From the NCBI GenBank assembly GCA_964424585.1, contig CAYRJD010000031.1, positions 2,352 through 66,351 on the forward strand: DNA of 64,000 nt, in the 5' to 3' direction. A program made the position numbers and the translations under genes. Below, one piece after another: positions 3,279-60,902 of the stretch. Below the pieces are notes generated by a model, which made no database searches, had not been told where the DNA came from, and saw only the letters and a list, made by a program, of their open reading frames with translations. Source of the DNA: an uncultured Acidimicrobiales bacterium (GTDB lineage Bacteria > Actinomycetota > Acidimicrobiia > Acidimicrobiales > Poriferisodalaceae). Each line of letters begins with the position of its first letter. Positions within the stretch are counted from its first letter, which is position 1.

Positions 3279-3312
3279 GTCGGCCGAGAACGCAGCCGGT
3301 GCGACGGTGGGG

Positions 3313-4600: not shown

Positions 4601-4657
4601 CTGTGTTTGCCTCAACGGTCGTGCGGAGCCCTCCGCGTGAGCGGTAAAGGCTACGGG

Positions 4658-5641: not shown

Positions 5642-5681
5642 GCGCGTGCCTCGGGTATCGGCCTGGCGGGACGCGCCGACA

Positions 5682-12647: not shown

Positions 12648-12751
12648 ACGCCTGAGGCTACCGACGCCCTCCCACGAGGCTGGCCGGCTTCGCGCAGGTC
12701 ACGCAAGAAATCGACTGGCTAATTCGGTTCACCTTTTGCTCAACTAGCGCG

Positions 12752-13276: not shown

Positions 13277-13362
13277 TGCCGCGCCGCAGCGAAACGAAAA
13301 CTGGATCATCAACCTCACCGCTAAGGTGAACCAAGGCATACCCTTGTCGCCGGGAGGCACAG

Positions 13363-13587
13363 ATGACTCAGCCAGATGCCAGCGAGCAAGAAGCGAGCCA
13401 ATCAGCTAGGGGCCAATCAGCCAGCGCGCACGAGGCAACCAACCACGCTCACAACGGTCACTGCCCCACTTGCGGCCAGGCCATCAAGTGCCCTACGTGC
13501 GGTCAGGTCATCAAGGACGACACCGCCGCGTCGCAGTGGTTCTTCACGTCTACGGCTCGGTCGCCTATACGGATGGTGTATCGCTAG
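13363..13587 (+). CDS. small zinc-ribbon protein, paralog 1 (HNGHCPTCGQAIKCPTCGQ)
   Basis: 74 aa. GGGAGG Shine-Dalgarno 6 nt upstream of the ATG. Two CPxCG knuckles, a disordered acidic/Ser-rich N-terminus and a basic tail ending MVYR. Paralogous to 13837-14046. Confidence 0.6.
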   Translation: MTQPDASEQEASQSARGQSASAHEATNHAHNGHCPTCGQAIKCPTCGQVIKDDTAASQWFFTSTARSPIRMVYR

Positions 13588-13750
13588 CTGGCGCGTTCGC
13601 GGCGAGACAGGGCGAGGCGGTAGGCGCGGTTGCGCCAGCAGCATCACGACCTCGCCGCGTCCGCTGCCCTCCGCGCTGAACTAACGGGCTAGCTCGCCGA
13701 CGGAGCCCCTGCGCACCTCTTCGTGCAGCTTGGAGATTTCGTCATCCACG
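13565..13750 (-). pseudogene. remnant of the rsmI 3-prime end (duplicated, internally deleted)
   Basis: 13560-13618 aligns by eye with 14036-14097, and 13627-13750 with 14217-14340 (the rsmI C-terminal coding region). About 120-130 nt of rsmI sequence are missing between the two blocks. No ORF is maintained. Confidence 0.55.
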
Positions 13751-13836
13751 AGGCGGCGGCCTGATCGTCGATGCCGTCGCTAAGGTGACGCTAGGTCTGC
13801 TGACGTCGGTCTACGGACGCTGCAAGGAGGCCCCGA

Positions 13837-14046
13837 ATGAAACGACCGGAGTCCAACCAGCCAGGCGACAGCCATTCAGAGGCCGCGCGCGCATCAACCA
13901 GTCACACTCATAACGGACACTGCCCGACATGCGGACAGGCCATCAAGTGCCCCGCATGTGGTCAACGCATAAGCACAGACACCGGCGAGTTGCGGATCAT
14001 CGCACGAAGTTCCAAACAACGACGTAGGCGCTTCGTGTATCGCTAG
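13837..14046 (+). CDS. small zinc-ribbon protein, paralog 2 (HNGHCPTCGQAIKCPACGQ)
   Basis: 69 aa. AAGGAGG 7 nt upstream of the ATG. Same double CPxCG core and FVYR terminus. Its stop TAG (14044-14046) shares CTAG with the rsmI stop. Confidence 0.65.
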   Translation: MKRPESNQPGDSHSEAARASTSHTHNGHCPTCGQAIKCPACGQRISTDTGELRIIARSSKQRRRRFVYR

Positions 14047-46764: not shown

Positions 46765-47676
46765 GTGAGCATCAACGCCATCGGACACAGCTACGTCGAC
46801 GTCGCCTCGGGCACGCGCCTCGACGCTTGGTTTCCAGACGTGTTCGCGCTGGGCGACGACACCGCGCCCACCCGGTCGTGCCTAGCGGCTGAGCTAGGCG
46901 TGATCACCGGTGAGGAGGTGGAGGTGGCCATCGCCTCGCTCGATGAGCCACCAACGGATCTGCTCGACGCCTACCTGCGGCTGCACCTGCTCAGCCGCCG
47001 AGAGATCGCCCCGCACGACGCCAACCTCGACGGCCTGTTCGGCCTGCTGACAAACTGCGCGTGGACGAACGCCGGGCCCGTGCTGCCGGCGCAGGTCGAC
47101 GCGCTGCGAGTCGCCGCTGCGGCGCGCGGCGCGCACGTGTCGGTGCGAGCGGTCGACAAGTTCCCCCGCATGACCGACTACGTGGTGCCTGCTGGCGTGC
47201 GCATCGCGGACGCCGACCGGGTGCGGTTGGGCGCGCACCTGGCTGACGGCACGACCGTGATGCACGAGGGTTTCGTCAACCTCAACGCCGGCACGCTCGG
47301 CCCGGCGATGGTCGAGGGTCGCATCAGCGCGGGCGTGGTCGTCGGCGCGCACAGCGACCTAGGCGGCAGCGCCTCAACGATGGGCACTCTGTCGGGCGGC
47401 GGCAAAGAACGGGTCAGCGTCGGCGAGCACTGCCTGCTGGGCGCGAACTCGGGCATCGGCATCGCGCTAGGAGACCACTGCACCGTCGAGGCCGGCCTCT
47501 ACGTGACGGCTGGCAGCCGCGTCACGATGCCCGACGGCTCGGTCGTGCGCGGACGAGACATCTCCGGCCGCTCAGGCATGCTGCTGCTCCGCAACTCCGA
47601 AACCGGCACCATCGAAATGCGCGTCCGCAACGAACATGCCTGGACCGGCCTCGACCCCGACCTCCACGCCAACTAA
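46765..47676 (+). CDS. dapD: 2,3,4,5-tetrahydropyridine-2,6-dicarboxylate N-succinyltransferase (actinobacterial type)
   Basis: GVRIADADRVRLGAHLADGTTVMHEGFVNLNAGTLGPAMVEGRISAGVVVGAHSDLGGSASTMGTLSGGG hexapeptide region. Confidence 0.85.
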   Translation: MSINAIGHSYVDVASGTRLDAWFPDVFALGDDTAPTRSCLAAELGVITGEEVEVAIASLDEPPTDLLDAYLRLHLLSRREIAPHDANLDGLFGLLTNCAWTNAGPVLPAQVDALRVAAAARGAHVSVRAVDKFPRMTDYVVPAGVRIADADRVRLGAHLADGTTVMHEGFVNLNAGTLGPAMVEGRISAGVVVGAHSDLGGSASTMGTLSGGGKERVSVGEHCLLGANSGIGIALGDHCTVEAGLYVTAGSRVTMPDGSVVRGRDISGRSGMLLLRNSETGTIEMRVRNEHAWTGLDPDLHAN

Positions 47677-47930
47677 CCCCATCCCCACTTCCGGAGGGTC
47701 ACTTGGCTGCCGCGGCCCAACATGCGTCCAAAGTACACCCTGCCACCGAATCACCATCAGTGCCCAAACACATCAGTCGCGACGTCCCGCCCAGGGCCTG
47801 CCTAATGCCATGCCCACCAGTTCCAAGCACTATCAAAAATACAATTGAAGTGGTAGCTACATCGCACAGACAAAACTCCTACCAAACGAGGCGCAATACA
47901 TCAAGCAACCGTGTCTGCGAAGCACACGCA

Positions 47931-49361
47931 TCAGAGCACTGACTCAAGTTCCCGCCATTCGATTTTACCCTTGGCCTCTCGAGACTGAAGGTAACCCAAG
48001 TACTCAAGTGTCTTGGCCGCAAAATCCAGTTGAACTCTCCAATTCTGCTTTTGATCAACAAACACATCACCGTTCTGCTTTTCACCAACTAACTCATCAC
48101 CGGTCCGTCTAGCATCAGAGTCAGACCAACCAAGGTCCCCTAGTTTCAACCTTACTACGTCTTCATCCTCCTCGCCCGTCATAAATGCCTCAACCACTTG
48201 ACTACGAACAACCTCATCCTCTACAAACGTGGTATCCAGCTTCTTCAACACCGCTGCTAGGTAATGCCGCCAGTTCGTCACCTCATCGCAGTTCAAGTCA
48301 AGTCCCCCACCAGTTTCCTTATCCGCCTTAGCATCCTTGGCAAACCTAACAAGAGAGCTAAGCCATGTCTCCGTACTAGGCTCATCCGGCTTCGTATTTG
48401 AAAGATCGTCCTCCAAAGCAAGAACAGGACTGACGGTAGTCGTCAGGATCAAACGCCTCAATATGTTGTTCCAATTGCACTCAAACTCATTTTCCAGCTT
48501 CTCTCTCCACTCCTTCAGTTTCTCTTCGTACGCGTTTGATGTGTCGCTATCATCTTTGCCAGGTCTCTTTTCAAACCCAAAAAAGTGATCGTCATCAAAA
48601 ACCGCAGGGCGCTGCTTCATAATATTTTCCACGGCGCTCTTGACTTTAGCTTCATCGACTTTAACTTCATCGGTTTCCTTGATTTTTCGAATTATTTCGG
48701 CAAAAATTTGGTAAAGCGCAAATGAGCGTTTGGCTTTCTTTCGATTATCTGACGTTTTCGCTTGTAGGAGTTCATGTATTGATGGCCACCTGATTTGTGA
48801 TGTGCCTTCGACGTCGTCTTTATCCAAAGCGCGTGTTGAAGTCTCTCTCGGCTCTAACCTCCAATAACCTCTTTCACTTGCGTCGAGTTTGCCATCATTC
48901 TTGAGTTCGTTTCGTGCAAAGTCAATGTTGTTGCTCCAAACCGGTAGGCGTCGTTTCTTGGTGAGCCTTAGCTGACTCTGTCCGAAGTCGAAATCGGTGC
49001 GTCCATTTTTGATCTGGTCAAACACCCTGCGGAGCACTAGGACCCAGGCAACCGTCCTGTGGGCCACTTTGACGTTTAGGCCACCAAGTACTTGTTCTAA
49101 GTGGTCACGGTAGTCCTTAGCGCGCAATTTGCTACCCTCGCCCTGGAGGGTTGGCCACTGCTTCAAGTCTTCCTTCAACTGCCCCTGAGGTTTAGCGAGG
49201 ATATCTCTAGCAATTTTGTTGAACTCATCTGATAATCCTTTAGCTTCATCTTGATGGTCTGTCTTTCGGTAGTCACATTCCTTTTTCATCTTGCAGTGAA
49301 ACTTATCAAGTTTGTCCTTGAGATGATTTAGCCTTTCGGAGAGTGTCATGTGAGATTCCAT
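47931..49361 (-). CDS. AT-rich hypothetical protein with two Mrr_N-like winged-helix modules (island gene D)
   Basis: Long open frame in AT-rich DNA, where random stops should be frequent. K/E/D-rich. VWSNNIDFARNELKNDGKLDASERGYWRLEP and C-terminal NWRVQLDFAAKTLEYLGYLQSREAKGKIEWREL resemble the Mrr N-terminal wHTH. AAGGA lies 7 nt before ATG 49361; the track start 49397 and ATG 49349 are alternatives. Confidence 0.6.
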   Translation of the reverse strand: MESHMTLSERLNHLKDKLDKFHCKMKKECDYRKTDHQDEAKGLSDEFNKIARDILAKPQGQLKEDLKQWPTLQGEGSKLRAKDYRDHLEQVLGGLNVKVAHRTVAWVLVLRRVFDQIKNGRTDFDFGQSQLRLTKKRRLPVWSNNIDFARNELKNDGKLDASERGYWRLEPRETSTRALDKDDVEGTSQIRWPSIHELLQAKTSDNRKKAKRSFALYQIFAEIIRKIKETDEVKVDEAKVKSAVENIMKQRPAVFDDDHFFGFEKRPGKDDSDTSNAYEEKLKEWREKLENEFECNWNNILRRLILTTTVSPVLALEDDLSNTKPDEPSTETWLSSLVRFAKDAKADKETGGGLDLNCDEVTNWRHYLAAVLKKLDTTFVEDEVVRSQVVEAFMTGEEDEDVVRLKLGDLGWSDSDARRTGDELVGEKQNGDVFVDQKQNWRVQLDFAAKTLEYLGYLQSREAKGKIEWRELESVL

Positions 49362-49397
49362 CCTATATTCCTTTTGGGCTGTGTTGTTGTAGAGCAT

Positions 49398-50366
49398 CGA
49401 AGTGAGAGCGCGCGGGACCTAGGCGGCGTGGTGGAACTGCCCGTCCCCGTGATGGTGCTGTTATGTGGGACAATGGTGCGCGGGGTCGGCCAGCGAGTGC
49501 GGGCGCCATTGGGTCCCTGAGTGAACAGTTCGCGCGGGTCACCACAACCGCGTCGTCTTGCTGGCCTAAAATCACCTGGCAATCAACTGTTGGCCATGAG
49601 AGTTGTGGACGTCTCCGCGGAACACGCGCCGCATGACGAGGGCCATGGGCCGACGACAAGCGTAGGTGGCCGACCAGTGAAGCGTCATCACTCGCGACAC
49701 GGCCAAGGCCCACCTCGGCACGCGGGGCACTGCGTACGTAGCGCGTGGTGGTTCGACAGGCACCGACCCCTGCCTTCACTCGGTAGCTAAGGGTGGCGCG
49801 GCCGCGATGACTGCCTGTCGCAGCCAGTAGGGGTCGAACCGGGTGGGTCATGAGCATCGGCCGGTCAGCGACAAGACGTAACGGACGCGTGTCAAGACAT
49901 TGGCTCAGCGGCACAGACGCCAGCAGGACCTGGTCTTCGGATGGCACGAGCACCGCGGACATGCGCACACATGCTAGAGGGTGTTGCGTCAACTTCCAAG
50001 TCTTCCGTCGTGATGCGAGGCTTGGCGGTGCCGTGCTGGCGGGTCGGACGACGCCCGCGATGAACCATGCCGCAGCCCAACGAGACGATGTCGCTCATGA
50101 CGTCAGAGCTGCTGACCGGCAACGCGCATGCTTCCTCAAGAAGCACCGCAGGACTGCCGGGGGTCACCATTGCACGATGTGCGCATCACATTGCGTACTC
50201 TTCCTGAAAGAAGAATCGCAACGCCGACCAACCCACACAGGTGTCGATGAGCGTTTTGGCATGCGGAGCACACGGGCACGGCACCTGCTCGCAGAGTGCA
50301 ACGCTGCGCCCCTGGGTGTGCGGACTGAGGCCACCACTGCCCACGCCGAAGGCGACTGATCTGTTG
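49398..50366. other. ~970-nt segment without a credible ORF inside the island
   Basis: All six-frame ORFs here (49363-49992, 49521-49790, 49850-50359, 49892-50170) are Arg/Pro/His/Cys-rich with no SD and no recognisable motif. GC is intermediate. Confidence 0.5.
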
Positions 50367-51260
50367 TCACGGAGAGGTGGGTGGGGGTGGGGCTGCGAGG
50401 CGGGCGAAGTCGAGGAGCTGAGGGTGGTGGTGCTCGCAGCGGCGAGCGACGGCGGTCATGACGTCCCAGAGGCGAACGTCTGGTGCGGCACGGGCGGCGC
50501 TGCACACGGCACCCATCGCGCGTGGGTGGAGCAAGTTCGCATACGAGGCGCGCCCGCGGTCGGTGAAGCGCCCCCAGTCGCCCGCGCGCAGCACCTCATG
50601 GCACTCGTCTGGGGTCATCGGCTCGCTCGCATCGGCAGTGCCATCGGCTGCGACTACGGCCAGGTGTCTGCGCCACCAAGCACGAGCAACCGGCGCATCT
50701 TGGGCTGGGCGGCTGCCCCGGCTCTCAACATGACTTCCCAGGCGACGAAGGATGTTGCGGACGTCTCGGTCCAGCGCCTTGCGCTGCTTCTTGTTGAGGT
50801 CGGTGCCGTTGTCCCACGCGAGAGCGAAGCGGGAAGCGTTGAACGTCGCGCGAGGCGGCTCGGTGAACCGGCACTCTTCCAGCCACGCGATGTGCCAGAG
50901 GCACCAGGTCACCGGGTCTGATGCTTGCGACGGCGTGACGTCGCTCAGCGCCTCGTGCACTCGGACCTCCCACTCGAAAGGATACTCGTTCATGTCACTG
51001 GCAGACGTCTGCGGCAGCGGCGGAGCGTTGATGGAAGTGTCCGCGCTGAGCCCTAGCTCGTCTCGTAGGTAGCCAGCGAGGCGCAGACCGGTCACCGCTG
51101 GCCCTCGCAGGAACACCAACCGACGCTCAACCATCTCGTCATCGACGTCCGCGAACTTCCGGCAGGCAATCTTCTGCTGCCAGTCACGAAACTGCACACG
51201 GGCCGAGTCGTCCGCCTCCGTATACGCGGGCGAGGTTGTCGGATCGGGCGCGACACTCAC
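50367..51260 (-). CDS. hypothetical protein (island gene C)
   Basis: 297 aa. GTG start 6 nt after the stop of gene B. Balanced composition with W/Y/H/C-containing blocks (WCLWHIAWLEECRF). No family recognised. Confidence 0.6.
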   Translation of the reverse strand: MSVAPDPTTSPAYTEADDSARVQFRDWQQKIACRKFADVDDEMVERRLVFLRGPAVTGLRLAGYLRDELGLSADTSINAPPLPQTSASDMNEYPFEWEVRVHEALSDVTPSQASDPVTWCLWHIAWLEECRFTEPPRATFNASRFALAWDNGTDLNKKQRKALDRDVRNILRRLGSHVESRGSRPAQDAPVARAWWRRHLAVVAADGTADASEPMTPDECHEVLRAGDWGRFTDRGRASYANLLHPRAMGAVCSAARAAPDVRLWDVMTAVARRCEHHHPQLLDFARLAAPPPPTSP

Positions 51261-51266
51261 GACGAT

Positions 51267-52121
51267 CTACCCCTCGTAGTCGCCGGGTTCGACATCGGCG
51301 AGCAATTCGTCGCCCACCAGCAACGTCGCCGCGTAGAGGGAGCTGAAGCCTTCGTCGCCAGGCACCGCGCAGTCGGGGTCGGCCGCTCTCATGAGCCGAA
51401 CCAGCGAGTCACCCACGGCGTGGCGACTACCCGGCACGTCATCGCCCGCGAACTCAACTTGGTTCGGCGCGTCTGCGAGCGCCGCCGTCAATCCCGCCAG
51501 CGTGACCGCTAGCGCCGACGAACCAGACTCGTCTTGCTGGTACCGCTGGAGGTCGTCCGGGTGGAGTGACACCACCCAATGCGGCACGTCTGAGTTGGCG
51601 AACCCCAGCTTCATGCGCCGACGCTCGACGCTAGCGTCTGGCACGTACGCGACAATCGCGCTCAACGGCGAGACCAGCGGCACGTGCTGGCCGCGCACAA
51701 GCCAAGTGCCTGCGGGCACAAACACCGGTGCTTCCGCTTCCCATGCCGGATGAACTCCCTCAGGCTGGAGCTTGCAGTCCTCAACCGCCAGCAGGCCCGG
51801 CAAACCCACCAACTGTCGCGCCACCAAGTCCGTCTTGGCAATACTGGCGGTCACTCTGGTCAACCGCGCATCGGCGAGAAACAGCCGTGCGAGGTAGGTG
51901 GCCGGACTTCTCACCTCCAAGCACCATCTCGCGAAACCGTCTCGGACCAACTCTTCGAGCCCGGGCGCGCCGTTCAACTCGTGCTCGGCGACGAACTCAC
52001 CGACACGCGCCGTTCCGTGGCCACTAAATCGCACGAGGTCAACGTTCGCGTCGTAGCGCGCAGAAGGCCAATCGAGGTTCTGATAGTCCCGATGGTCGAG
52101 AACAGGGACTCTGTCGATCAC
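51267..52121 (-). CDS. hypothetical protein (island gene B)
   Basis: 284 aa. GTG 52121 overlaps the stop of gene A (GTGA). No family recognised. Confidence 0.6.
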   Translation of the reverse strand: MIDRVPVLDHRDYQNLDWPSARYDANVDLVRFSGHGTARVGEFVAEHELNGAPGLEELVRDGFARWCLEVRSPATYLARLFLADARLTRVTASIAKTDLVARQLVGLPGLLAVEDCKLQPEGVHPAWEAEAPVFVPAGTWLVRGQHVPLVSPLSAIVAYVPDASVERRRMKLGFANSDVPHWVVSLHPDDLQRYQQDESGSSALAVTLAGLTAALADAPNQVEFAGDDVPGSRHAVGDSLVRLMRAADPDCAVPGDEGFSSLYAATLLVGDELLADVEPGDYEG

Positions 52122-54094
52122 GACTGCTCCTCAACAGCCTCAACAGGCTTGAGCACCGCCACTTCCACGCGAAGCGCATCTAGCGCATCCTGGGAAACGC
52201 CAACGACATCCACCTCGAGTTCCGCCACTCCTTGTTCGGCAAGAGCTACGACGCTCGCCGCGTAATCGTCTGTGCCGTCAGCAAATCGGCAAGGTAGTGC
52301 CGCGGGCTTGACCTGCTTGTCGCACGCCGGGTCAGAACCGTTGCCCGCCAGCAGCACAATGTCGACCATCGCGTCAGCGCCGCTCGAAGTGCTCCGGTTC
52401 GATCCTCGGGCGGCGAACTTTGGTTGCCAGATGACGCGAACGTGGCCGTCTTCACGCGGAATGACCGAAGCGGGCAAGCCAGCTACACGACCCCTTGCCC
52501 GCGCTTGAGTGCGCGAGCGATTGGTGTCGCCCGGATGCTCGCCGCCGTTGGGATTTGGGTCTTCCTCCAAGGCTCTGCCCTCGTCGCTCTCGTCTTCGTC
52601 TTCGATAATCGGCGGCGGTGCTGGCTTGGCGCGCTGTGGCGGAGATCGATCGTCTAGCTCGCCGCGCAGCAAGCGAAGTGCCTCGGGCTCCCAGGTGCTC
52701 GTGTTCCGCGTCGGCACGGTTTCACGCAGCTCTTCAGCCAGAGCCCTCAACGCGCTCTTGAGCTGCGGCCCTTCCCGATTGGGTGCATTGCCCGCGTCGA
52801 CCTGGAGGTGTGAACCGGTCTCGCACGCACGCACGAGACGACCGAACGCGCCCGTAGCGTCAACGACGGCGTGAAACGCCACTTGGTCGGAAAAGTCCTT
52901 GGCCTCCAGGCGCCGAACGGCGTCGCTAATCCGCATGCCTTCTCGAAAGAGCGTCACCCGTGAACGCTCGCCGGGCGTCTCTTTCCATCTGATGCGGGCA
53001 CCGTCCAGCAGGTCATGACGCGGAGGCAACGACGTGCCCTCGGTCCACACCTTCCAGGCTGCGTGGGCATTGACCCCAGCGCCGAGTTCTTTGGCGCCAC
53101 GCGTAGCGCGCTGACGCAGTCTGATTCGTTCCAGAGCCTCCCGAAAGGCTTCAGTTCCGGCAGTGCCTTGACCACCTACCGCGGTCGACGCGCCCGTTAT
53201 CGCGTTCTCGTGCGTTACCTCCATCAGCCCGTCTTCGATTGCCACGGTGAAGTGATGCGCCACTATCTCCGCGATCCACGCACCCAGCGGATCGCGTTGC
53301 GTGTCGTCAAGTCGTCGGGGTGAGAGTGACCTATGTGCCGTGATGCAGACGGCAGTTCCCCGCTCCAAATCGCCAAGCAGCCAGTCGGGCGGATCATGCG
53401 CGGGGTACGGATCGGTGCCTATGAAGCTGTCGGCATGCGCTTCGACTGTCAAGCACCCGTGGTGCGAGCGGGCGACGGGTCTGCCGCTGTCATCAATGCC
53501 GTCGTCGGCATCTCCGTGGGTCGCCAGAAAACACTGCCCGCCCAGCATCCGGGTTCCGTCCGCCGCAATGCCACCGTAAAGCACGTACCGGAGGCGCGAG
53601 GCCGCAATGGCCGTCAGATGCCCGACACCGATCGAGCCCCTAGCGCTTGACCCTTCGTCGGTGTTGCCGCCAGACCCCTTGTTGAGCATCTTCTTGTAGC
53701 GGACGGCATCTAGGCCCTTGCCGTTATCCCGGCAGATAAGGCACGTGACGGCACCCTCGTCCAGTGCCTCAGCAATGCGCTCGCTCACCCTCCTATCTTG
53801 AGGTGATCGCCGCAGGTGCTCACCGATGCGCGCAAAAGCTCCCCTGTAGTCCGCGATGCCAGGCATCTGCGCGCTTGGCACACGTTGTGAAACAAAGTCA
53901 ACTCGAACGACTCCGTCAGCTTCATCGTCGGGCTGAGCGTCGAGCGCGTTCTGCACAAGTTCGCGAATGACGATCTCGTCGTTGACGTGTTCGTCTGCTA
54001 GAGCCGCGAAGCCGTCCTCGGTGCCCAAGTCTTTAACGAAGACGAGTCGTGCCTCGCCGCCGCTCGCCTGATCGGCCCCAGCTGCTTCGGTCAC
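52118..54094 (-). CDS. GHKL-superfamily ATPase (MutL/Hsp90/MORC-like Bergerat fold), island gene A
   Basis: N-box ELVQNALDA at 53936-53962, G1 box DNGKGL at 53711-53728, G2 box GSIGVG at 53621-53638. Start taken as GTG 54094, preceded by GAAAGGGG. The track start 54259 adds 55 Arg/Cys-rich residues. Confidence 0.75.
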   Translation of the reverse strand: MTEAAGADQASGGEARLVFVKDLGTEDGFAALADEHVNDEIVIRELVQNALDAQPDDEADGVVRVDFVSQRVPSAQMPGIADYRGAFARIGEHLRRSPQDRRVSERIAEALDEGAVTCLICRDNGKGLDAVRYKKMLNKGSGGNTDEGSSARGSIGVGHLTAIAASRLRYVLYGGIAADGTRMLGGQCFLATHGDADDGIDDSGRPVARSHHGCLTVEAHADSFIGTDPYPAHDPPDWLLGDLERGTAVCITAHRSLSPRRLDDTQRDPLGAWIAEIVAHHFTVAIEDGLMEVTHENAITGASTAVGGQGTAGTEAFREALERIRLRQRATRGAKELGAGVNAHAAWKVWTEGTSLPPRHDLLDGARIRWKETPGERSRVTLFREGMRISDAVRRLEAKDFSDQVAFHAVVDATGAFGRLVRACETGSHLQVDAGNAPNREGPQLKSALRALAEELRETVPTRNTSTWEPEALRLLRGELDDRSPPQRAKPAPPPIIEDEDESDEGRALEEDPNPNGGEHPGDTNRSRTQARARGRVAGLPASVIPREDGHVRVIWQPKFAARGSNRSTSSGADAMVDIVLLAGNGSDPACDKQVKPAALPCRFADGTDDYAASVVALAEQGVAELEVDVVGVSQDALDALRVEVAVLKPVEAVEEQS

Positions 54095-54178
54095 GGCCAG
54101 CGAACCCCTTTCGTGCGACCCCCAACTAGGCAGTCTGCCAGCAGTGCAACACCGCTTGCCGTGGCTTTCGCGGGTGCG

Positions 54179-54192
54179 TCGCACGCGTGCGA
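54179..54192. promoter_or_regulatory. perfect 14-bp palindrome TCGCACGCGTGCGA in a divergent intergenic region
   Basis: Read directly from the sequence. It lies between the GHKL gene start (54094) and the small + strand ORF (54241). CACTGC/GCAGTG and a GCGTGAC x2 repeat lie nearby (54213-54247). Confidence 0.3.
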
Positions 54193-54240
54193 GGCGTGCG
54201 CTGCGTCGGCAACACTGCAGGGCGTGACGGGCAGTGCCGC

Positions 54241-54633
54241 GTGACACACGTGAACTCATCTAGGCCGCTCGACGGCCCGTGGCGGCCGCTGACCGAAGTC
54301 GAACTGGCGAAGGTGCCAGCCCAGCTGGGCGTGTTCCAGCTCGCCGACGAACAAGGCGCCGTGCAACGCATCGGCTACGCCGGGGCACGCGAGCCGTTCG
54401 GAATGCGCAGCGCGCTGAAACGATTTCTCTGCCCGGGCGCCTCAGCTGCGGGCACGACGCCCGACACGCCAACACCGAAGCGCCAGCCGCAGCGGTTTCG
54501 CTACGAGTTCACCGCCAACTACGCCAGCCGCTACGACGAGCTGCTGATGCGCCACATCGCCGCCCACGGCCAGCTGCCCGACGCGCAGCGGCACGAGCAA
54601 GCCCGCGTCGGCAGGCTGAGCGGTGCGTCATGA
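54241..54633 (+). CDS. small conserved-looking protein with GIY-YIG-like N-terminal motif
   Basis: LGVFQLADEQGAVQRIGYAG has GVF, 10 residues, then RIG, which is GIY-YIG-like spacing. Its stop overlaps the ACAD start (ATGA). GTG candidates at 54187, 54241 and 54250. Confidence 0.45.
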   Translation: MTHVNSSRPLDGPWRPLTEVELAKVPAQLGVFQLADEQGAVQRIGYAGAREPFGMRSALKRFLCPGASAAGTTPDTPTPKRQPQRFRYEFTANYASRYDELLMRHIAAHGQLPDAQRHEQARVGRLSGAS

Positions 54634-55796
54634 ACTTTTCGCCAACGCAAGAACAGCAGCTCATCGTCGACACCGTCGCGAAGTTCGTCAGCACTGAGAT
54701 CGTCCCGCTCGAAGCCGACCTCGACCCCGACGCCGGCGAGCTCGCGCCCGAAGACGCCGAACGGCTCACCCAGATGACCAAGCAGATGGGCTTTTTTGGC
54801 CTCGACATTCCCGCCGAATACGGCGGCCCCGGCCTCGACACCACCACCCGCGCGCTGATGGCCATCGAGATGAGCAAGCACCGGGCCGGCCTCTACAACC
54901 CCTGCTACGGCACGTTCGGCGGCGCTGGACTAGCCCAGCTCTACGAGGCCACCGAGGAACAAAAGGAGCGCTGGCTCTACCCGACGCTGCGCGGCGAGAA
55001 GGTCGGCTGCTTCGCGCTGACCGAACCGACCGGCGGCTCCGACCCCGCCCGCGCCATCCGCACCCGAGCCATCAAAGACGGCGACGAGTGGGTGCTCAAC
55101 GGCGCAAAGCTGTTCATCTCAGGCGCAGACAAAGCCGACTACGCGCTGTTGTTCGCTCGCACGTCCGACGACCCCGGGCGCGCCGGCGTCACCGCCTTCA
55201 TCGTCGACACCGACACGCCCGGCTTTCACGTCCGACGGGTCGTCCACACGCTGCGCGCCACCCGCTACGCCACCGAACTCGAGTTCATCGACATGCGAGT
55301 GCCCAACGACAACGTGCTCGGCGAGGTGAACGGCGGCTTCGGCATCGCCAACGACCGGCTCAGCCGCCAACGCATTCCCTACGCCGCGGGCTGCATCGGC
55401 CCAGCCATCGTCGCCCAGCAGATGTCGATCGAGTGGGCGAAGAGCCGAGAGACGTTCGGCGGGCCGCTCGCCGACAAGCAAGCGATCCAGTGGATGATCG
55501 TCGACAACGAAATCGACATCCGCCACGCCCGCTGGTGCGTGCTCGACGCCGCGCAGAAAGCAGACGCCGGGCAGCGATTTCGCACCGAAGCGGCGATGGC
55601 GAAGCTCGTCGCCAGCGAAGCAGCCGGACGGGTCGTCGACCGAGCCATTCAAATACACGGAGGCATCGGCGTCACCAAAGACCTGCCGCTCGAACGCTGG
55701 TACCGAGAGCTGCGCATCCGCCGCATCGGCGAGGGCCCCAGCGAAGTGCAGCGGCTGATCATGGCGCGCGACATCCTGGGCGGCAGCTTCAAGTGA
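54630..55796 (+). CDS. acyl-CoA dehydrogenase
   Basis: MNFSPTQEQQLIVDTVAKF, ALTEPTGGSDPARAIRTRAIKDGDEWVLNGAKLFISG and RIGEGPSEVQR. The first 117 codons of the track ORF are shadow. Confidence 0.9.
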   Translation: MNFSPTQEQQLIVDTVAKFVSTEIVPLEADLDPDAGELAPEDAERLTQMTKQMGFFGLDIPAEYGGPGLDTTTRALMAIEMSKHRAGLYNPCYGTFGGAGLAQLYEATEEQKERWLYPTLRGEKVGCFALTEPTGGSDPARAIRTRAIKDGDEWVLNGAKLFISGADKADYALLFARTSDDPGRAGVTAFIVDTDTPGFHVRRVVHTLRATRYATELEFIDMRVPNDNVLGEVNGGFGIANDRLSRQRIPYAAGCIGPAIVAQQMSIEWAKSRETFGGPLADKQAIQWMIVDNEIDIRHARWCVLDAAQKADAGQRFRTEAAMAKLVASEAAGRVVDRAIQIHGGIGVTKDLPLERWYRELRIRRIGEGPSEVQRLIMARDILGGSFK

Positions 55797-57034
55797 GCAG
55801 CCACCTAGGCGAAGCCGAACCCCAAGACGAAGCCAGCCCGCAACGCGAGCCCGCCCGCGACCTGCCCCTCTCGGGCACCACCGTGCTCGACCTGGGTCAG
55901 ATCTACCTGGGCCCCTACGCCAGCTTTCTCATGGCCACCTCGGGCGCTCGCGTCATCAAGGTCGAACCGCCCGAAGGCGAGCCGCTGCGCGGCAACAGCC
56001 ACTCGCTGCCGTATGCGCTGCTCAACGCCAGCAAGGAAGCCGTCACCCTCAACCTCAAGCACGACCGCGGGCGCGAGCTGCTTCTCACGCTGGCTCGCCA
56101 GGCAGACGTGCTGACGTGCAACTTCGCGCCGGGCGTGACGCAGCGTCTCGGCATCGACGCGCCCGCGATGTGGCAGGTCAACCCCGCGCTCGTCTACGCC
56201 CAAGCGACCGGCTTCGGCCTCGACGGCCCCGACGCTAACCGCACCGCGATGGACTTGACCGTGCAAGCGCACATGGGGCCGATGAGCGTGACCGGCTACC
56301 CCGACCGACCAGGAGTGAAAGCGGGCGTCGCGTTCATCGACATCTTGGGCGGCACGCACCTGTTCGCGGCGGTCGCCGCCGCGCTCGTCGAGGTCGCCCG
56401 CACCGGCGTCGGCCGGATGGTGGAAACGTCGATGGCCGAGTCGGCGTTCTTCACCCTCGCCACCTACCTCCAGCAGTGGCACACGAGCGACGACGGCGCG
56501 ACGCCGCGCGTCGCCAACAAGCACGCCACGCTCGGGCTGTCGCCCTACGACACCTACGAATGCGCGGACGGCTACGTCGCGCTGATCGTCATCTCCGACC
56601 GGCAGTGGCGCGCCGTGGCTGACGTGATCGGACGCGACGACCTCGCCGACGACGAGCGCTACGCGCGCAACCGCGCCCGCATCGCACGGGCCACAGAGGT
56701 CGACGCGCTGGTGACCGGCTGGACGAGCGAGCGGCCCAAAGCCGAGGTCGCCGCCGCGTTCGCAGCCGCCGGCGTGCCGGTCGCGCAGGTGCGCGACATC
56801 GACGAGGTCGTCCACGACCAGCACCTCACCGAGCGGGGCTTCATCAGCTGGGCGCAGCATCCCGAGATGGGTCGCATCCCGCGCGCGCAAAGCCCGATCC
56901 GGTGGCACGGCTCTGAGCTGCCGCCGCTGCGCTGGCACAGGCCGGTCGGCGCCGACAACGAAGCCATCTTCGGCGAGCTAGCGGGGCTCTCACCCGACGA
57001 GGTCGCCGCGCTCGCCAGCGAAGGCGTCATCTAG
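55793..57034 (+). CDS. family III CoA-transferase (CaiB/BaiF)
   Basis: LSGTTVLDLGQIYLGPYASFLMATSGARVIKVEPPEGEPLRG and AMDLTVQAHMGPMSVTG (Asp-containing active-site motif). GTG 55793 overlaps the ACAD stop (GTGA). The upstream part of the 648-aa track ORF is shadow. Confidence 0.85.
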   Translation: MSSHLGEAEPQDEASPQREPARDLPLSGTTVLDLGQIYLGPYASFLMATSGARVIKVEPPEGEPLRGNSHSLPYALLNASKEAVTLNLKHDRGRELLLTLARQADVLTCNFAPGVTQRLGIDAPAMWQVNPALVYAQATGFGLDGPDANRTAMDLTVQAHMGPMSVTGYPDRPGVKAGVAFIDILGGTHLFAAVAAALVEVARTGVGRMVETSMAESAFFTLATYLQQWHTSDDGATPRVANKHATLGLSPYDTYECADGYVALIVISDRQWRAVADVIGRDDLADDERYARNRARIARATEVDALVTGWTSERPKAEVAAAFAAAGVPVAQVRDIDEVVHDQHLTERGFISWAQHPEMGRIPRAQSPIRWHGSELPPLRWHRPVGADNEAIFGELAGLSPDEVAALASEGVI

Positions 57035-57730
57035 GGCCGCTTGGCGAGCCTCCACCGCGAGCCCCGCTTCGAGCGGCAAATCGTACGCGGCGCTCAAGCA
57101 CGCCCGCAGCGCGCGCCAGCGTCGGCGCGGCGTGGCTGCTAGCTGCGTCGCGAGTTCGCGCGCCCGGCGCTCTAGCTCGTCGCCATCCACCACTTCGGCG
57201 ACGATGCCGAGCCGGTGGGCTTCGGTGGCGGTGATGGTCTCCGCGGTGAGCACCAACGGCAGCGCCGCGCTCGGCCCGATGGCTCGCGTCAAGCTCTGCG
57301 TGCCGCCGGCCGCCGGCAGCATCCCGAGCTTGGTTTCCGGCAAGCCCAGCACCGCGTCGCTCGCGGCCAAGCGAATGTCGCACAGCAGCGACATCTCGAG
57401 GCCCGAGCCGAGCACGTGGCCGCGCAAAGCGGCGACGGTCGGCACACCCAACTCGGCCAGCGTCAGCCACGGGTCGCGCTGCCAGCGAATGCGCCGAGCT
57501 TCGATGACCGAGCTGGCCGAACCGAACTCGGCGAGGTCTGCGCCCGCGCTGAAGTAGCGCCCCGCCGCCAGCAGCAGCACGCACCTGGCTGAGGGCACGT
57601 CGCGCACGGCGGTCACCGCTTCGATGAGGGCGTCTCGCATCTGCAGGTCGTAGATGTTGAGCGGCGGATGATCGAGCGTGATGGTCGCCACGCCGTCGTC
57701 GCCGAAGGTGAGGTGCAGACGCTCTCCCAC
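56990..57730 (-). CDS. enoyl-CoA hydratase/isomerase family protein
   Basis: GVATITLDHPPLNIYDLQMRDALIEAV and FSAGADLAEF oxyanion motif. Start taken as GTG 57730, 8 nt after the upstream stop. Confidence 0.8.
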   Translation of the reverse strand: MGERLHLTFGDDGVATITLDHPPLNIYDLQMRDALIEAVTAVRDVPSARCVLLLAAGRYFSAGADLAEFGSASSVIEARRIRWQRDPWLTLAELGVPTVAALRGHVLGSGLEMSLLCDIRLAASDAVLGLPETKLGMLPAAGGTQSLTRAIGPSAALPLVLTAETITATEAHRLGIVAEVVDGDELERRARELATQLAATPRRRWRALRACLSAAYDLPLEAGLAVEARQAALDDAFAGERGDLVG

Positions 57731-57738
57731 GAGCCCGC

Positions 57739-58803
57739 CTAACGCCGCCGCGCCGATGCCAGCGCCGCGTGCACGAGCGGCGCGACCGCATCCGCGAGCG
57801 ACACACCGCAGGCGGTCGGACGCGCGCTCGTGAGCTGGTCGGCCGCGGTCGCCGCTGCTACGAGGCCAGCCAGCGGGTCGGGGTAGGAAAACTCGCACGG
57901 CTCCGGCTGAGCACCCAGCCAGCCCAGCCCGCTGGTGGCGTGCACGCCTGAGCCGTAGGCGATCCAGTCGGCCTCCGGCGCGTTTGGTTCGTACGCGGTG
58001 ATGGCGAGCGTGCGCATCGGGCGGCGCAGCTGGCTGGGCAACAAGCCGAGGTTCGCCAGCGCGCGGCGCGACATCGACGTCACCAACAAGTCGGCGGCGG
58101 CGAGGCAGTCGTCGAGCGCGCGCCGCTCATCTAGCTGCCGCAGGTCGAGCTCGACCACCTCTTTGTCTTCGTTGAGCTGACGAAAGTGCGCAGGCGAGCC
58201 GCGCAGCCCGTCTACTCGCACGTTCGACTCGACCTTGATGACGCGCGCCCCAGCTCGCGCCAGCAGCTGGGTGCACAGCGGCCCGGCCCACATCGAACTC
58301 AGATCGACGACCGTGACGTCGGCCAGCGATCGGCGCGGCGCGCCGAGCGGACGCGAGGTGTCGTCGAGCAGCGCGGCCGGCTCACTCGGTGCGCGCCCCG
58401 CGACCGGCGCGCTCAGCTGGCGATAAGGCGTAACCGCCAAGCGCCACTGCTGCGCTTCGGCCGCAGCGGCCTCAGCGTCGACGGGCTCGGCGTCGGTGGG
58501 TCCAGCAACATCGCCGTGTTCGGCACCGCTGGCCAGCGATCCGCAGAGGCGCTGCCAGGTGTCTTCATCGTCTGGGCCCAGATCGACGCACAGCGCGCCC
58601 TCGCCCCAGGGCACCGGCTCGGCGCGAACACCCAGCCCGCCCAGCCGCGCCGGCGCGTCCACCCAGTCGGCGACGTCGCCGACGACCGCGCCGAGCCGCG
58701 CCTCGACCCGCGCACCGAGCGCCTCGGCGTACTCCCACAACCCCGGCGGCAACGTGCCGCCGGTCGGCTCGCCCGTCGAGGGCCGAGGCTCGGTCAACGT
58801 CAT
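57739..58803 (-). CDS. family III CoA-transferase-like protein with unrelated ~150-aa N-terminal region
   Basis: VTVVDLSSMWAGPLCTQLLARAGARVIKVESNVRVDGLRG signature. The motif AYGSGVHATSGL has Gly where the catalytic Asp is expected. Confidence 0.7.
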   Translation of the reverse strand: MTLTEPRPSTGEPTGGTLPPGLWEYAEALGARVEARLGAVVGDVADWVDAPARLGGLGVRAEPVPWGEGALCVDLGPDDEDTWQRLCGSLASGAEHGDVAGPTDAEPVDAEAAAAEAQQWRLAVTPYRQLSAPVAGRAPSEPAALLDDTSRPLGAPRRSLADVTVVDLSSMWAGPLCTQLLARAGARVIKVESNVRVDGLRGSPAHFRQLNEDKEVVELDLRQLDERRALDDCLAAADLLVTSMSRRALANLGLLPSQLRRPMRTLAITAYEPNAPEADWIAYGSGVHATSGLGWLGAQPEPCEFSYPDPLAGLVAAATAADQLTSARPTACGVSLADAVAPLVHAALASARRR

Positions 58804-59597
58804 CGGCCAGCGAAGTCGGGGGGTCGCTTGTCGAAGAACGCGGCCAGCCCTTCGGCGCGGTCGTGCGTGCTGGCGAGCAGACCGTTGAGGTCGCCCTCTA
58901 GCCGCAGCCCCTCGCGCAGCGACATCTCGGCGCCGCGGTGCACGGCTTCTTTGGCCAGCTCGAGCGCCAGCGGGCCGCGCTCAGCGAGCGAGCCGCACAG
59001 TTGCGCGGCGCCCGCTGCGAGCGCCTCGTGGCCCTCGAACACCTCGTGCACCAAGCCCCACTGCTTCGCCGTCGCCGCCTCGAGCGTGCTGCTGAGCATC
59101 AGCATCGACGTGGCACGCGCGTGGCCCACCGCCCGAGGCAGACGCTGCGTTCCGCCCCACGACGGAAACGCTCCGTCGCCGCTCGCGTCTAGCGCGAACA
59201 CGGCGTCCGCGCGCGCGAGCCGAACGTCGCACGCCAGCGCGATCTCGAGGCCCACTCCGCAGCACGCGCCGCCGATAGCCGCGACGACCGGCACCCGCAG
59301 CGCGGCGATGGCGTCGGTCGGGCTGGGCCCGTCGCCAGGCAGAGCTAGGTCTTTTGCGGCTCCGTCGCAGAAATCGCCGTCGGGCGCGTCCACCAGCACG
59401 ACCCGATAGTCGCGCTCTTCGCGCAGCGCCGATGCCGCAGCAGCGAGTTCACGCGCGCCGGATGCGCTGAGCGGCCCACCAGCGAGCCGCAGCCGCGCCA
59501 CCGCACCGGCGCCGCGGTCGTCGCCAGCGGCTCGGCTACTCAGTCGGCTGACTTGGTCTTCTTCGGCTCCTGGAGAGCCATGTCTTTGCCGTTGCAC
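58800..59597 (-). CDS. enoyl-CoA hydratase/isomerase family protein
   Basis: VVLVDAPDGDFCDGA, VVAAIGGACCGVGLEIALACDVRLA and AEGLAAFFDKRPPDF. The start is uncertain: ATG 59597 overlaps the upstream small ORF by 58 nt, and GTG near 59490 is an alternative. Confidence 0.7.
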   Translation of the reverse strand: MQRQRHGSPGAEEDQVSRLSSRAAGDDRGAGAVARLRLAGGPLSASGARELAAAASALREERDYRVVLVDAPDGDFCDGAAKDLALPGDGPSPTDAIAALRVPVVAAIGGACCGVGLEIALACDVRLARADAVFALDASGDGAFPSWGGTQRLPRAVGHARATSMLMLSSTLEAATAKQWGLVHEVFEGHEALAAGAAQLCGSLAERGPLALELAKEAVHRGAEMSLREGLRLEGDLNGLLASTHDRAEGLAAFFDKRPPDFAGR

Positions 59598-59782
59598 TGC
59601 AACGTGACCTGTCCCGGCTTGGTCACCAGCACCTCGATGCCGGTGGCTTCGTCTTGGTAGCGCTTGCCGACCATCACGCCGTCGCCACCGCCCGACGCGC
59701 TGATGTCGCCGTCGCCGCCCTTGGTGACGATGACCTGCACGCCCTCGTCAAGATCCAACCGCTCGCCTGCCGTGGTTGCCAC
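59540..59782 (-). CDS. small hypothetical protein (possibly a Cys-depleted desulforedoxin-like fold)
   Basis: 80 aa. VGKRYQDEATGIEVLVTKPGQVTLQCNGKDMAL resembles actinobacterial GKRYxCxxCGxEVLCTK small proteins, but only one Cys is retained. Confidence 0.45.
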   Translation of the reverse strand: MATTAGERLDLDEGVQVIVTKGGDGDISASGGGDGVMVGKRYQDEATGIEVLVTKPGQVTLQCNGKDMALQEPKKTKSAD

Positions 59783-59945
59783 TTACGCATACCCCCTTGT
59801 GGTGTTGTCCGATGACGAGCCGCTACTCGTCGCGTTGTCGGTGCGACACAGGCTAACGCCCGCCGCCGCAGACACTTCGTCAAACCCAACCCGCCGCCCT
59901 GACCCAGCCGCCCTGATCTCGCCTCGCTCACCTAGTCTCGCAGCC

Positions 59946-60902
59946 GTGACACTTGAACCTCAAGCGGCCAAGTTGCTGAGCCGCATCGAAGCGCTCGGAC
60001 TACCGGAGTTCGAAACGGTGGGCCACGAACGAGCCAGAACGGGCTTTGCGAGCCGTCCGCCCGCCGGGCATCTCGTCGAGGTCGCAGCGGTGAGCGACGA
60101 CAGCTTCGCCAGCGCAGACGGCAACGACGTAGCCGTGCGCGTCTACACGCCAACCCAAGCGGCGCACCGCGTGCCGCTCGGCGGTTTCGGGTGTCTCATC
60201 TACTTCCACGGCGGCGGCTGGGTGGTCGGCAGCATCGAAACGCACGACCGGGTGTGTCGAGCGCTCACCGAGCTGGCCGGCGTGGTGACCGTGTCGGTCG
60301 ACTACCGCCTGGCTCCCGAGCACAAGTTTCCTGCCCCTGCCGAAGACTGCTACGCCGCGGTCGTCTGGGCGCACGACAACGCCGAGCGGCTCGGCATCGA
60401 CGCGGCCAAGCTGGCTGTGGGCGGCGACTCAGCGGGCGGCAACCTGGCCGCGGCGGTCGCGCTGATGTGTCGCGACCGAGGCGGCCCGGCACTTGCGCAC
60501 CAGATGCTGATCTACCCGGTCACCGACTTCGACCGCACGACGTCGTCGATGCGCGCCAACGCCGAAGGCTTCTTGCTCACCCGCACGACCATGAGCTGGT
60601 TCGACGATCACTACCTGGCGACCGACGACGACGCGAACAACCCGTACGCCGCGCCGCTCGCGTGCGACGACCTGTCCGGGCTCGCACCCGCTGTGGTCAT
60701 AGTGGCTGGCCACGACCCGCTGCGCGACGAAGGCGTCGCGTACGCGCAGCGGCTCAGCGCCGCGCAGGTGCCCACGACGCTGGTCGAATACCCGGGGCAG
60801 TTTCACGGGTTCTTCACGATGACGAAGTTCCTCGACCAAGCGGTTCAGGCTCAGTCGCTCGCGGCTGCGCTGCTGTCGGCCCAGCTAGGTGCGACCGGCT
60901 AG
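59946..60902 (+). CDS. alpha/beta hydrolase, hormone-sensitive-lipase-type esterase
   Basis: HGGGW oxyanion motif, GDSAGGNLA nucleophile elbow and DPLRDEG...H triad context. Start GTG 59946; upstream track ORF residues are shadow. Confidence 0.85.
   Translation: MTLEPQAAKLLSRIEALGLPEFETVGHERARTGFASRPPAGHLVEVAAVSDDSFASADGNDVAVRVYTPTQAAHRVPLGGFGCLIYFHGGGWVVGSIETHDRVCRALTELAGVVTVSVDYRLAPEHKFPAPAEDCYAAVVWAHDNAERLGIDAAKLAVGGDSAGGNLAAAVALMCRDRGGPALAHQMLIYPVTDFDRTTSSMRANAEGFLLTRTTMSWFDDHYLATDDDANNPYAAPLACDDLSGLAPAVVIVAGHDPLRDEGVAYAQRLSAAQVPTTLVEYPGQFHGFFTMTKFLDQAVQAQSLAAALLSAQLGATG

Follow-up and report, generated by a model that had tools for sequence, protein, structure and literature searches.

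A GHKL ATPase cassette in a compositionally deviant islet between dapD-like and acyl-CoA dehydrogenase genes of a sponge-associated Acidimicrobiia bacterium

Within a contig from an uncultured Acidimicrobiales bacterium of the Poriferisodalaceae (GenBank assembly GCA_964424585.1, contig CAYRJD010000031.1), we analysed a stretch of 64,000 nucleotides, here called the window, in which GC content drops abruptly after a dapD-like gene and is back at a high level ahead of an acyl-CoA dehydrogenase (ACAD) gene. The 6.5 kb in between, positions 47677 to 54240, hold four minus-strand genes that we call A, B, C and D; we refer to this segment as the islet. What do these genes encode, and how did they come to lie between such neighbors? 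An earlier note made from the sequence had described a compositionally foreign, mosaic insertion without recognising what its genes encode.

On balance, though with confidence only a little past the midpoint, we read the islet as an integrase-less, defence-type cassette in a recombination hotspot, in which A-B-C would provide the ATPase and handle DNA at the core of a phosphorothioation-type system that has here been cut off from sulfur transfer and has D as its partner. The cassette is a variant, bearing D and lacking the PP-loop enzyme introduced below as E, of a rare and essentially undescribed gene family known, so far as its matches indicate, only as the candidate system PDC-M33 of the PADLOC collection. 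The function that we propose rests on genomic association, and the biology could be new.

Genes A, B and C and their sulfur-transfer neighbors elsewhere

Gene A (52118-54094, minus strand, with its start as in P0001) encodes 658 amino acids, in which a GHKL ATPase domain is followed by a transducer-like domain and, at the C-terminus, by a domain rich in beta structure. Its homologues are few, amounting to 9 clusters in an index of 5.8 billion proteins. The Bergerat motifs are present as an N-box (ELVQNALDA), a G1 box (DNGKGL; DNGxGL in the family) and a G2 box (GSIGVGH; GSxGVGH in the family), and they are kept in 8 of the 9 homologues, the remaining one, P0008, being truncated at its N-terminus and without ELVQNALDA. 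Seven of the nine family members match Pfam HATPase_c_3 below threshold, and comparison of A with the PDB by sequence and profile gave weak GHKL matches only. An AF2 model built from the 9-sequence alignment had a mean pLDDT of 63, with residues 40-130 and 230-460 well predicted and core segments at 80-93. Foldseek matched this model best to Topo VI-B (2.6e-9), followed by Hsp90, MLH1/MutL, MORC2/3 and GyrB; the matches span the GHKL domain and transducer over 450-560 columns, with E values of 1e-9 to 1e-6 and a Foldseek probability of 1.0. The model thus predicts that A is a GHKL ATPase with a transducer, of the Topo VI-B/MutL/MORC kind, and binding and hydrolysis of ATP are predicted with it.

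Enzymes of this kind dimerise upon ATP binding and clamp or manipulate DNA. Gene A shares with the GHL ATPases (Topo VI-B, MutL, MORC and GyrB) the Bergerat motifs and the predicted GHKL domain with its transducer, but sequence identity to them is only 10-13%, and A is without Spo11/Topo VI-A, a MutL C-terminal endonuclease or a CW/coiled-coil partner. Its C-terminal ~200 residues, comprising a disordered linker and the beta-rich domain, have no match, and the partners B and C are unique to the family of A.

These partners are B (51267-52121, minus strand, 284 aa), whose 5' end overlaps the stop of A by 4 nt, and C (50367-51260, minus strand, 297 aa). Both are conserved: wherever a contig extends far enough to include their position, they accompany A, and B always follows A. 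Distant homologues of B match the PADLOC model PDC-M33B in four of nine cases (best E=2.6e-11); the window B gives no match to that model at E<=0.1, and its homology is transitive only. The residues that are invariant in B (P, Y, P, W, G and A) all belong to structural types, so that they suggest no catalytic site, and a single-sequence AF2 model of B (pLDDT 32) was unusable. C, being rich in arginine and tryptophan, may bind nucleic acid; its invariant residues are W119, R168, R172, R181, W196, R197 and W229. A weak DUF6339 signal is present in 3 of 9 C members (best E=1.3e-3, under the cut-off), and the literature that we searched held nothing on DUF6339. Neither B nor C matched any PDB entry by sequence or profile.

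The context of A-B-C in other genomes was examined on contigs encoding distant A homologues, together with 16 loci from a metagenome scan (L093-L108) that were mapped by tblastn. In every locus with covered flanks except L097, some 20 loci, A-B-C adjoins, and is operonic with, a 430-450-aa PP-loop enzyme resembling SspD and DndC, which we label E (L005/6, L007/8, L089, L090, L091, L093-096, L098-101, L103-106 and L108). E carries the PP-loop SGGRSS, the motif CTxxLK and invariant CxxC and CxC pairs, and it matches SspD (1.3e-8), BrxP, DndC and PAPS_reduct; the PDB yielded no match to E by sequence or profile. A cysteine desulfurase, labelled S, is also present in L007/8, L090, L091, L103, L104 and L108 (SspA/DndA models, 1e-122 to 1e-120), as are DndB (PF14072) in L090 and GmrSD_N proteins, of the SspE/DndB superfamily, in L089, L100 and L104. 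The wider neighborhoods are defence-like, with toxin-antitoxin genes, reverse transcriptase, TIR proteins, insertion sequences, Type ISP restriction-modification and methylases. Most of the distant loci come from marine-sponge metagenomes (LXNI, LXNJ and MKWU), whose contigs derive from the sponges Sarcotragus foetidus, Petrosia ficiformis and Aplysina aerophoba (PMC5099237).

Judged by these gene associations, the most likely role of A-B-C in such loci is that of a core, made up of the ATPase and its DNA-handling partners, in a DNA sulfur-modification and defence system of phosphorothioation type. The distant cassettes resemble Dnd (DndABCDE with or without DndFGH) and SspABCD-SspE in joining a PP-loop enzyme, a desulfurase and an ATPase with small DNA-handling partners, and in the presence of DndB or of GmrSD_N/SspE-like proteins. 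They differ in that the ATPase is of GHKL type, rather than ABC/SMC-like as in DndD or AAA+ as in SspC, and in that neither B nor C resembles DndE or SspB; A, B and C match no Dnd or Ssp model in PADLOC. SspFGH and DndFGH were considered as counterparts of A-B-C and dismissed, since SspH is FtsK-like and PADLOC matches were lacking. The comparative-genomics literature that we consulted on phosphorothioation and BREX makes no mention of GHKL or HATPase proteins. If the reading is true at the level of the family, E-S-A-B-C would be a further route to phosphorothioate-like DNA modification, beside Dnd, Ssp, Tdp and BREX type 4, and one driven by a GHKL clamp ATPase.

A second comparison is with PDC-M33, for which the literature searched yielded no published description. 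The window A matches PDC-M33A (E=1.2e-14, 51.9 bits), distant A proteins match it at up to 9e-17, and the order of A then B is shared. The window cassette departs from this candidate in that its B and C match no PDC model, and in that the match of A lies mainly in the ATPase region (residues 98-254). Hidden paralogy among A, B, C, D and E was also considered, and mutual profile comparisons were negative.

Two features of the distant loci deserve mention in their own right. L097 (55-7897) holds two diverged A-B-C cassettes head to head, with A at 1913-3694 on the minus strand and at 4347-6233 on the plus strand; there is no PP-loop gene between the cassettes or within 1 kb downstream, and the locus may be a second E-less case. 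In L103 (12868-14937) and L108 (6935-9037) a homologous ~700-aa protein with a helix-turn-helix (HTH) of Sigma70_r4 type directly follows the cassette, and in L108 this is followed by a helicase of ResIII/SNF2 type (9040-11250); these may be restriction partners.

The window cassette, unlike Dnd and Ssp, comes without the PP-loop enzyme, desulfurase, DndB or SspE. A tblastn search of the 64 kb returned no E homologue, a profile HMM run over 47677-50400 returned none either, and the window contains no cysteine desulfurase homologue. Neither gene is present in the sequences of L002-L004, where the inspection for E took in 22 kb around the L002 cassette. In a neighbor-joining tree of A, the E-less cassettes of the window, L002 and L004 are monophyletic, and their sister group is an E-bearing clade of L005, L093 and L094. 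By this placement the loss of E is derived, and the single clade suggests one loss followed by persistence.

It might be argued that the system is instead split, with A-B-C still serving a phosphorothioation-type machine that receives its PP-loop enzyme and desulfurase in trans, from genes at another place in the genome. Such an arrangement would agree with the purifying selection on A-B-C described below, with an inspection that covered 64 kb of the genome, and with known dnd clusters, in which the desulfurase is often the housekeeping IscS (Rakesh et al. 2024, PMC10853773). Yet E is never detached from A-B-C in the ~20 loci that bear it, it is missing from the L002 and L004 surroundings as well as from the window, and the three E-less cassettes belong to a single clade, a pattern that makes a split system quite improbable in our view.

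Composition, junctions and empty sites

We computed GC in 300-nt windows and in 1-kb bins across the 64 kb, and both profiles contain the discontinuity that the earlier note had read from hand-counted lines, with the position and pattern that it gave. Broadly, GC goes from about 0.69 down to 0.41-0.53 at 47.7-49.5 kb and is then 0.61-0.67 as far as ~54.2 kb. In 300-nt windows, the dapD-like gene has GC of 0.68-0.73; the profile passes 0.607 at 47550-47849, is lowest at 48450-48749 with 0.413, and has recovered to 0.607 at 49350-49649, or roughly 0.61-0.65 around 49.4-49.6 kb. From there it runs at 0.60-0.71 up to ~54.0 kb and at 0.68-0.70 onward. Strong dips are limited to the bins at 48-49 kb (0.464) and 49-50 kb (0.574), the remaining 1-kb bins lying at 0.627-0.729. 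By gene, GC and third-position GC (GC3) are 0.467 and 0.51 for D, 0.672 and 0.77 for C, 0.649 and 0.76 for B, and 0.635 and 0.68 for A, and the base composition and codon usage of all four deviate from the host core (GC3 of 0.51-0.77 versus a mean of 0.84, sd 0.05, in the 44 other long ORFs of the window).

The hand counts themselves had the right direction and were slightly extreme: D, put at 33-50% GC, computes to 41-53%, and the dapD gene, represented by a line at 78%, has a mean of 0.698. The remaining description was accurate, namely ~250 nt of C+A-rich sequence after the dapD stop, ~1 kb without an ORF, coding confined to the minus strand and unrelated to lysine or acyl-CoA metabolism, and a small ORF coupled to the ACAD gene. 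The earlier note had also seen no integrase, transposase, tRNA target or direct repeats, and the dedicated searches agree. ORF, Pfam, PADLOC, NCBIfam and PHROG scans found no integrase or transposase among the islet ORFs; there is no tRNA within 6.5 kb of the islet, the nearest lying at 6.5 kb; and direct or inverted repeats over 47400-54500 were chance-size matches only, for which reason flanking repeats or attachment sites at the islet edges were discarded. A phage link was likewise dropped, there being no PHROGs match and no cassette on viral contigs. A scan for promoters and terminators gave counts at or under shuffled expectation.

An abrupt GC change in a metagenome-assembled genome (MAG) of an uncultured organism could reflect a chimeric join, made in assembly or in binning. 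An independent Logan assembly, from 3 samples, is 100% identical over 48073-60232, which takes in the C-spacer-D and A-DUF7508 junctions, and therefore neither the joins nor the GC break is an artefact of assembly. L002 and L003, from two further samples, hold the same A-B-C and a low-GC D between the same flanking genes, and we consider a chimera scarcely credible.

For a survey of empty sites, one genome per species was scanned with the dapD-like protein, and the window proteins were mapped onto the loci returned. The empty dapD-ACAD junction that the earlier note had proposed to look for is present in four relatives. L011 (Ca. Poriferisodalaceae; dapD-like identity 78%) reads NMO(-), dapD(+), DUF7508(+), ACAD(+), with a gap of 12 bp between dapD and DUF7508. 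L010 and L015 read dapD-Amidohydro_2-DUF7508-ACAD, and L009 reads dapD-Amidohydro_2-DUF7508 with ACAD on the opposite strand; none of these three, in which dapD-like identity is 70-78%, has the islet. Measured against these relatives, then, the 6.5 kb has been inserted, and the empty sites, with the GC and GC3 data, support the description of a compositionally foreign mosaic insert.

In the closest relatives, L002/L003 and L004, the flanks are 91-97% identical to those of the window and the locus is occupied, in layouts that differ. The window has dapD, D-C-B-A and DUF7508, without Amidohydro_2; L002/L003 have dapD, D-C-B-A, Amidohydro_2 and DUF7508; and L004 has dapD, Amidohydro_2, C-B-A and DUF7508, without D. 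Amidohydro_2 lies between dapD and DUF7508 in most relatives, and no remnant of it is detectable in the window islet. The window proteins are 65%, 69% and 77% identical to L002 for A, B and C, and 57%, 69% and 65% to L004; D is 26% identical to that of L002 and has no equivalent in L004. Nucleotide homology to L002 within the islet covers only 50371-54053 (at 70%), the homology of the flank ends at the dapD stop codon, and for 47681-50370 neither L002 nor L004 has a homologous nucleotide sequence. Because the closest relatives carry the same A-B-C at this locus, it is not a strain-specific recent acquisition. Relatives with the same genes at the same place and with host-like codons had been named as a sign against foreign origin; the genes and the place are indeed shared with L002/L003 and L004, but the codon usage is not that of the host.

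Divergence, calculated by the Nei-Gojobori method, separates the cassette from its surroundings. The dS of A, B and C is 1.50, 1.57 and 1.01, that of dapD, ACAD and NMO is 0.40, 0.31 and 0.31, and the cassette values are 3-5 times those of the flanks; by this measure the cassette alleles are older than the split of the host genomes. The excess dS and the three junction types argue for allele exchange or repeated insertion at a hotspot, rather than for simple vertical descent, and the sequence comparison fits a recombination hotspot holding old, exchanged alleles. The window layout was also considered as a recombinant of L002-type and L004-type chromosomes; this was rejected, as the cassettes are roughly equidistant and sliding-window identity gave no breakpoint. 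Integrase-less defence hotspots between conserved core genes are a described type, which the locus resembles in its variable cargo between the same core genes, deviant composition, several junctions, empty sites and want of mobility genes. It is unlike them in that the three occupied genomes all carry alleles of one cassette instead of different systems, and for that reason it is the differing junctions and the excess dS, and not turnover of cargo, that speak for a hotspot.

The dN/dS of the cassette is 0.15-0.22, a range that places A-B-C under purifying selection and, on this evidence, marks its genes as functional. Conservation extends to the cassette-borne region upstream of A (54095-54235, minus strand). 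In a three-way alignment of the window, L002 and L004, a palindrome, GGCAGTCTGCC, at 54129-54139 and a second box at 54205-54221 are kept in all three cassettes, despite ~35% overall cassette divergence and differing neighbor genes; the 11-mer TGGCAGACTGC is invariant although the L002 neighbor on that side is Amidohydro_2. Because the boxes are retained whatever the neighbor, we place the right boundary of the islet at ~54222-54240. The palindrome and second box form a candidate promoter or operator.

These data bear on whether the islet is a decaying relic, that is, a non-functional remainder of E-A-B-C on its way to deletion, with the spacer between D and C as part of the decay. The loss of E and S, an unexplained non-coding spacer, and the loss of the Amidohydro_2 neighbor in this genome would all suit such a history. 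Against it speak the intact A, B and C genes of three lineages, kept although the nucleotide sequences of their cassettes have diverged by 30-40%, the dN/dS values, and the retention of all GHKL motifs, of the family's invariant residues and of the upstream motif, and we give it very little credence.

Gene D, the spacer and the proposed working of the cassette

Gene D (47931-49361, minus strand) is an AT-rich orphan of 476 aa when read from an internal ATG, its ORF extending to 49397 (488 aa). It is a real gene, being a 1.4-kb ORF in DNA of 47% GC and having a homologue in L002. A full HMMER scan of 1.84 billion representatives returned only D itself and the L002 protein (P0029). The identity of 26% between the two is concentrated at the N- and C-termini (BLASTP E=3e-12; whole-library scan 4e-6), and the L002 gene stands directly after C, in the same position and orientation, with GC of 0.494 and GC3 of 0.55. 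Both proteins match Pfam Mrr_N below its cut-off of 29.5 bits, D at E=4e-5 (24.0 bits, residues ~143-181) and L002 D at E=9e-6 (26.2 bits, residues 126-160), in each case over the second half of the domain only, which is its recognition-helix and wing part. A second conserved helix-turn segment lies at the C-terminus of D.

Searches of D with Pfam, PADLOC and NCBIfam found no Mrr_cat PD-(D/E)xK nuclease domain, the D alignment contains no nuclease-like motif, and no match was obtained with the PDB, PADLOC, PHROG or NCBIfam. D resembles Mrr, a type IV modification-dependent restriction enzyme, in a sub-threshold, Mrr_N-like winged-helix segment, and differs from it in lacking Mrr_cat, its remaining ~300 residues being orphan sequence. 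D also contains a 30-nt tandem duplication (48043-48102, 87% identical) that encodes a repeated 10-aa unit, GDELVGEKQN and GDVFVDQKQN, just before the conserved C-terminal segment.

The spacer between D and C (49398-50366) is 969 nt long with GC of 0.64 and contains no intact gene; in L002 it measures 273 bp. All six of its frames are stop-broken or without a GC3 signature, and the DNA may be decayed. We considered it as a pseudogene of E, S, Amidohydro_2, D, B or C, and tblastn, profile HMMs and six-frame comparison gave no real match; a lone 8.8-bit match to the E profile, out of frame inside D, is noise. On the other side of D, a C+A-rich trailer of 254 nt (47677-47930) fills the interval between the convergent stops of the dapD-like gene and D. 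It has GC of 0.56 and a GC skew of about -0.3 (plus strand C-rich), and it is unique to this genome in the comparison with L002 and L004, having no homology to either; there the same interval is only ~40 bp. RNA elements in trailer and spacer were looked for and discounted, since Rfam gave no match at its gathering threshold or by E value and fold z-scores were +0.75 (spacer), +0.14 and +0.60; the trailer showed no RNA family match or excess folding on either strand.

From the two GC levels, the earlier note had proposed at least two acquisitions or a nested insertion. In its developed form, this explanation has an older A-B-C islet that later received, independently, a 2.7-kb AT-richer segment of trailer, D and spacer, with D functionally unconnected to its neighbors. 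The absence of nucleotide homology to L002 and L004 over 47681-50370, whereas 50371-54053 has it, fits this history, as do the GC3 of D (0.51 versus 0.68-0.77 in A-B-C), the occurrence of A-B-C without D in L004, and the 969 nt of non-coding DNA between D and C, which allow D a promoter of its own. However, L002 has an AT-rich D homologue placed and oriented identically after C, D-type proteins are found nowhere else among the 1.84 billion representatives, and the D-bearing cassettes are sisters in the neighbor-joining tree of A. We therefore treat D as a cassette-linked accessory and not as a random nested insert, and consider two independent insertions unlikely. Since the L002 homologue shares both the position after C and the low GC, D is, as far as the comparison of these sequences goes, a recurrent, fast-evolving cassette accessory in this clade. 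Replacement of 47681-50370 as a module is plausible, because that segment has no nucleotide homology to either relative. The earlier interpretation is in this way partly supported: the inserted, foreign, mosaic islet stands, and two independent recent acquisitions do not stand as stated.

The composition of D poses a small puzzle, for it is AT-rich in both lineages though the proteins are only 26% identical and the hosts have 66-68% GC. Divergence in situ should have raised its GC. Repeated replacement is a candidate explanation, but it would call for a pool of donors, of which 15 billion proteins give no sign. That selection favours AT-richness in D, for example through silencing by a nucleoid protein, is pure speculation.

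How might such a cassette work? As GHL ATPases do, A would dimerise on ATP, with C and perhaps B contacting DNA. In the ancestral system, A-B-C would have placed the PP-loop enzyme and a persulfide donor on DNA; in the clade of the window, the sulfur-transfer genes have been lost and D has been added. Because A-B-C is under purifying selection, we infer that it still works, presumably as an ATP-driven DNA-scanning complex that operates without sulfur transfer, and D would be a DNA-recognition subunit directing it to modification-independent surveillance or defence. A more specific form of this proposal, which we put forward tentatively as a possibility, is that A-B-C is the DNA-scanning core of an undescribed defence system of DNA backbone or sulfur modification, built around a GHKL ATPase and largely confined to sponge symbionts. 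Here it would have been re-coupled to a hypervariable, AT-rich, double winged-helix D for modification-independent surveillance without a recognisable nuclease, for example to clamp or silence foreign DNA.

Several points weigh against the reading of the islet as a defence-type cassette with an uncoupled phosphorothioation-type core. The main weakness is that we recognise no nuclease or other effector domain in any of the four proteins, which leaves killing or restriction without a nameable step. Relatives by fold were detected for neither B nor C, the window copies of both match no PADLOC model, and the Mrr_N score of D falls short of the Pfam threshold. Phosphorothioation by the E-bearing relatives is deduced from gene content only, and, the inspection having covered 64 kb of the genome, an E gene at another site could serve the cassette in trans. 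Weaker codon bias could account for part of the high dS in the cassette, and the persistent AT-richness of D in two lineages lacks an explanation.

With those points granted, the window can be viewed as a natural experiment, in which an ATPase core persists under purifying selection without modification enzymes. DndD and DndE have been described as a scanning core, composed of an ATPase and a DNA binder, that is able to re-couple to other partners (Rakesh et al. 2024, PMC10853773), and the islet bears on a question raised for Dnd systems, namely whether DNA-scanning cores are self-contained modules that can be connected to one effector or another. Defence genes are known to be over-represented in sponge-symbiont metagenomes (Horn et al. 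2016, PMC5099237; Slaby et al. 2017, PMC5649159), and the locus adds to these symbionts a defined hotspot with a defence-type cassette.

Flanking genes and other features of the window

The left flank is a core-genome gene of the tetrahydrodipicolinate N-succinyltransferase family (46765-47676, plus strand; Pfam THDPS_M and Hexapep_2), with GC3 of 0.88 and 91% identity to its L002 orthologue. Its protein scores 391.7 bits against NCBIfam DapD_actino, under the cut-off of 441.5, and the gene labelled dapD may be a DapD-family paralogue rather than the lysine-pathway enzyme.

The right flank (54241-55796, plus strand) consists of a small DUF7508 gene (Pfam DUF7508, E=1.6e-12), whose real start is probably a GTG at 54241 or 54250, and of the ACAD gene at 54630-55796. 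The DUF7508 ORF and the ACAD start overlap in an ATGA at 54630-54633, the arrangement of translational coupling that the earlier note had remarked on. The ACAD is 97% identical to that of L002 and belongs to a 152-member cluster at 90% identity, the named members of which are Candidatus Poriferisodalis or Acidimicrobiaceae MAGs. The host is a sponge-associated member of the Acidimicrobiia, similar to Ca. Poriferisodalis.

Two minor observations concern other parts of the window. At 8950-9047, ARAGORN called a tRNA-like gene with a 4-nt anticodon (cgca), which the Rfam tRNA model did not report at its gathering threshold. At 12001-14000 and 31001-32000, GC is mildly low (0.64-0.66), a range like that of the A, B and C genes.

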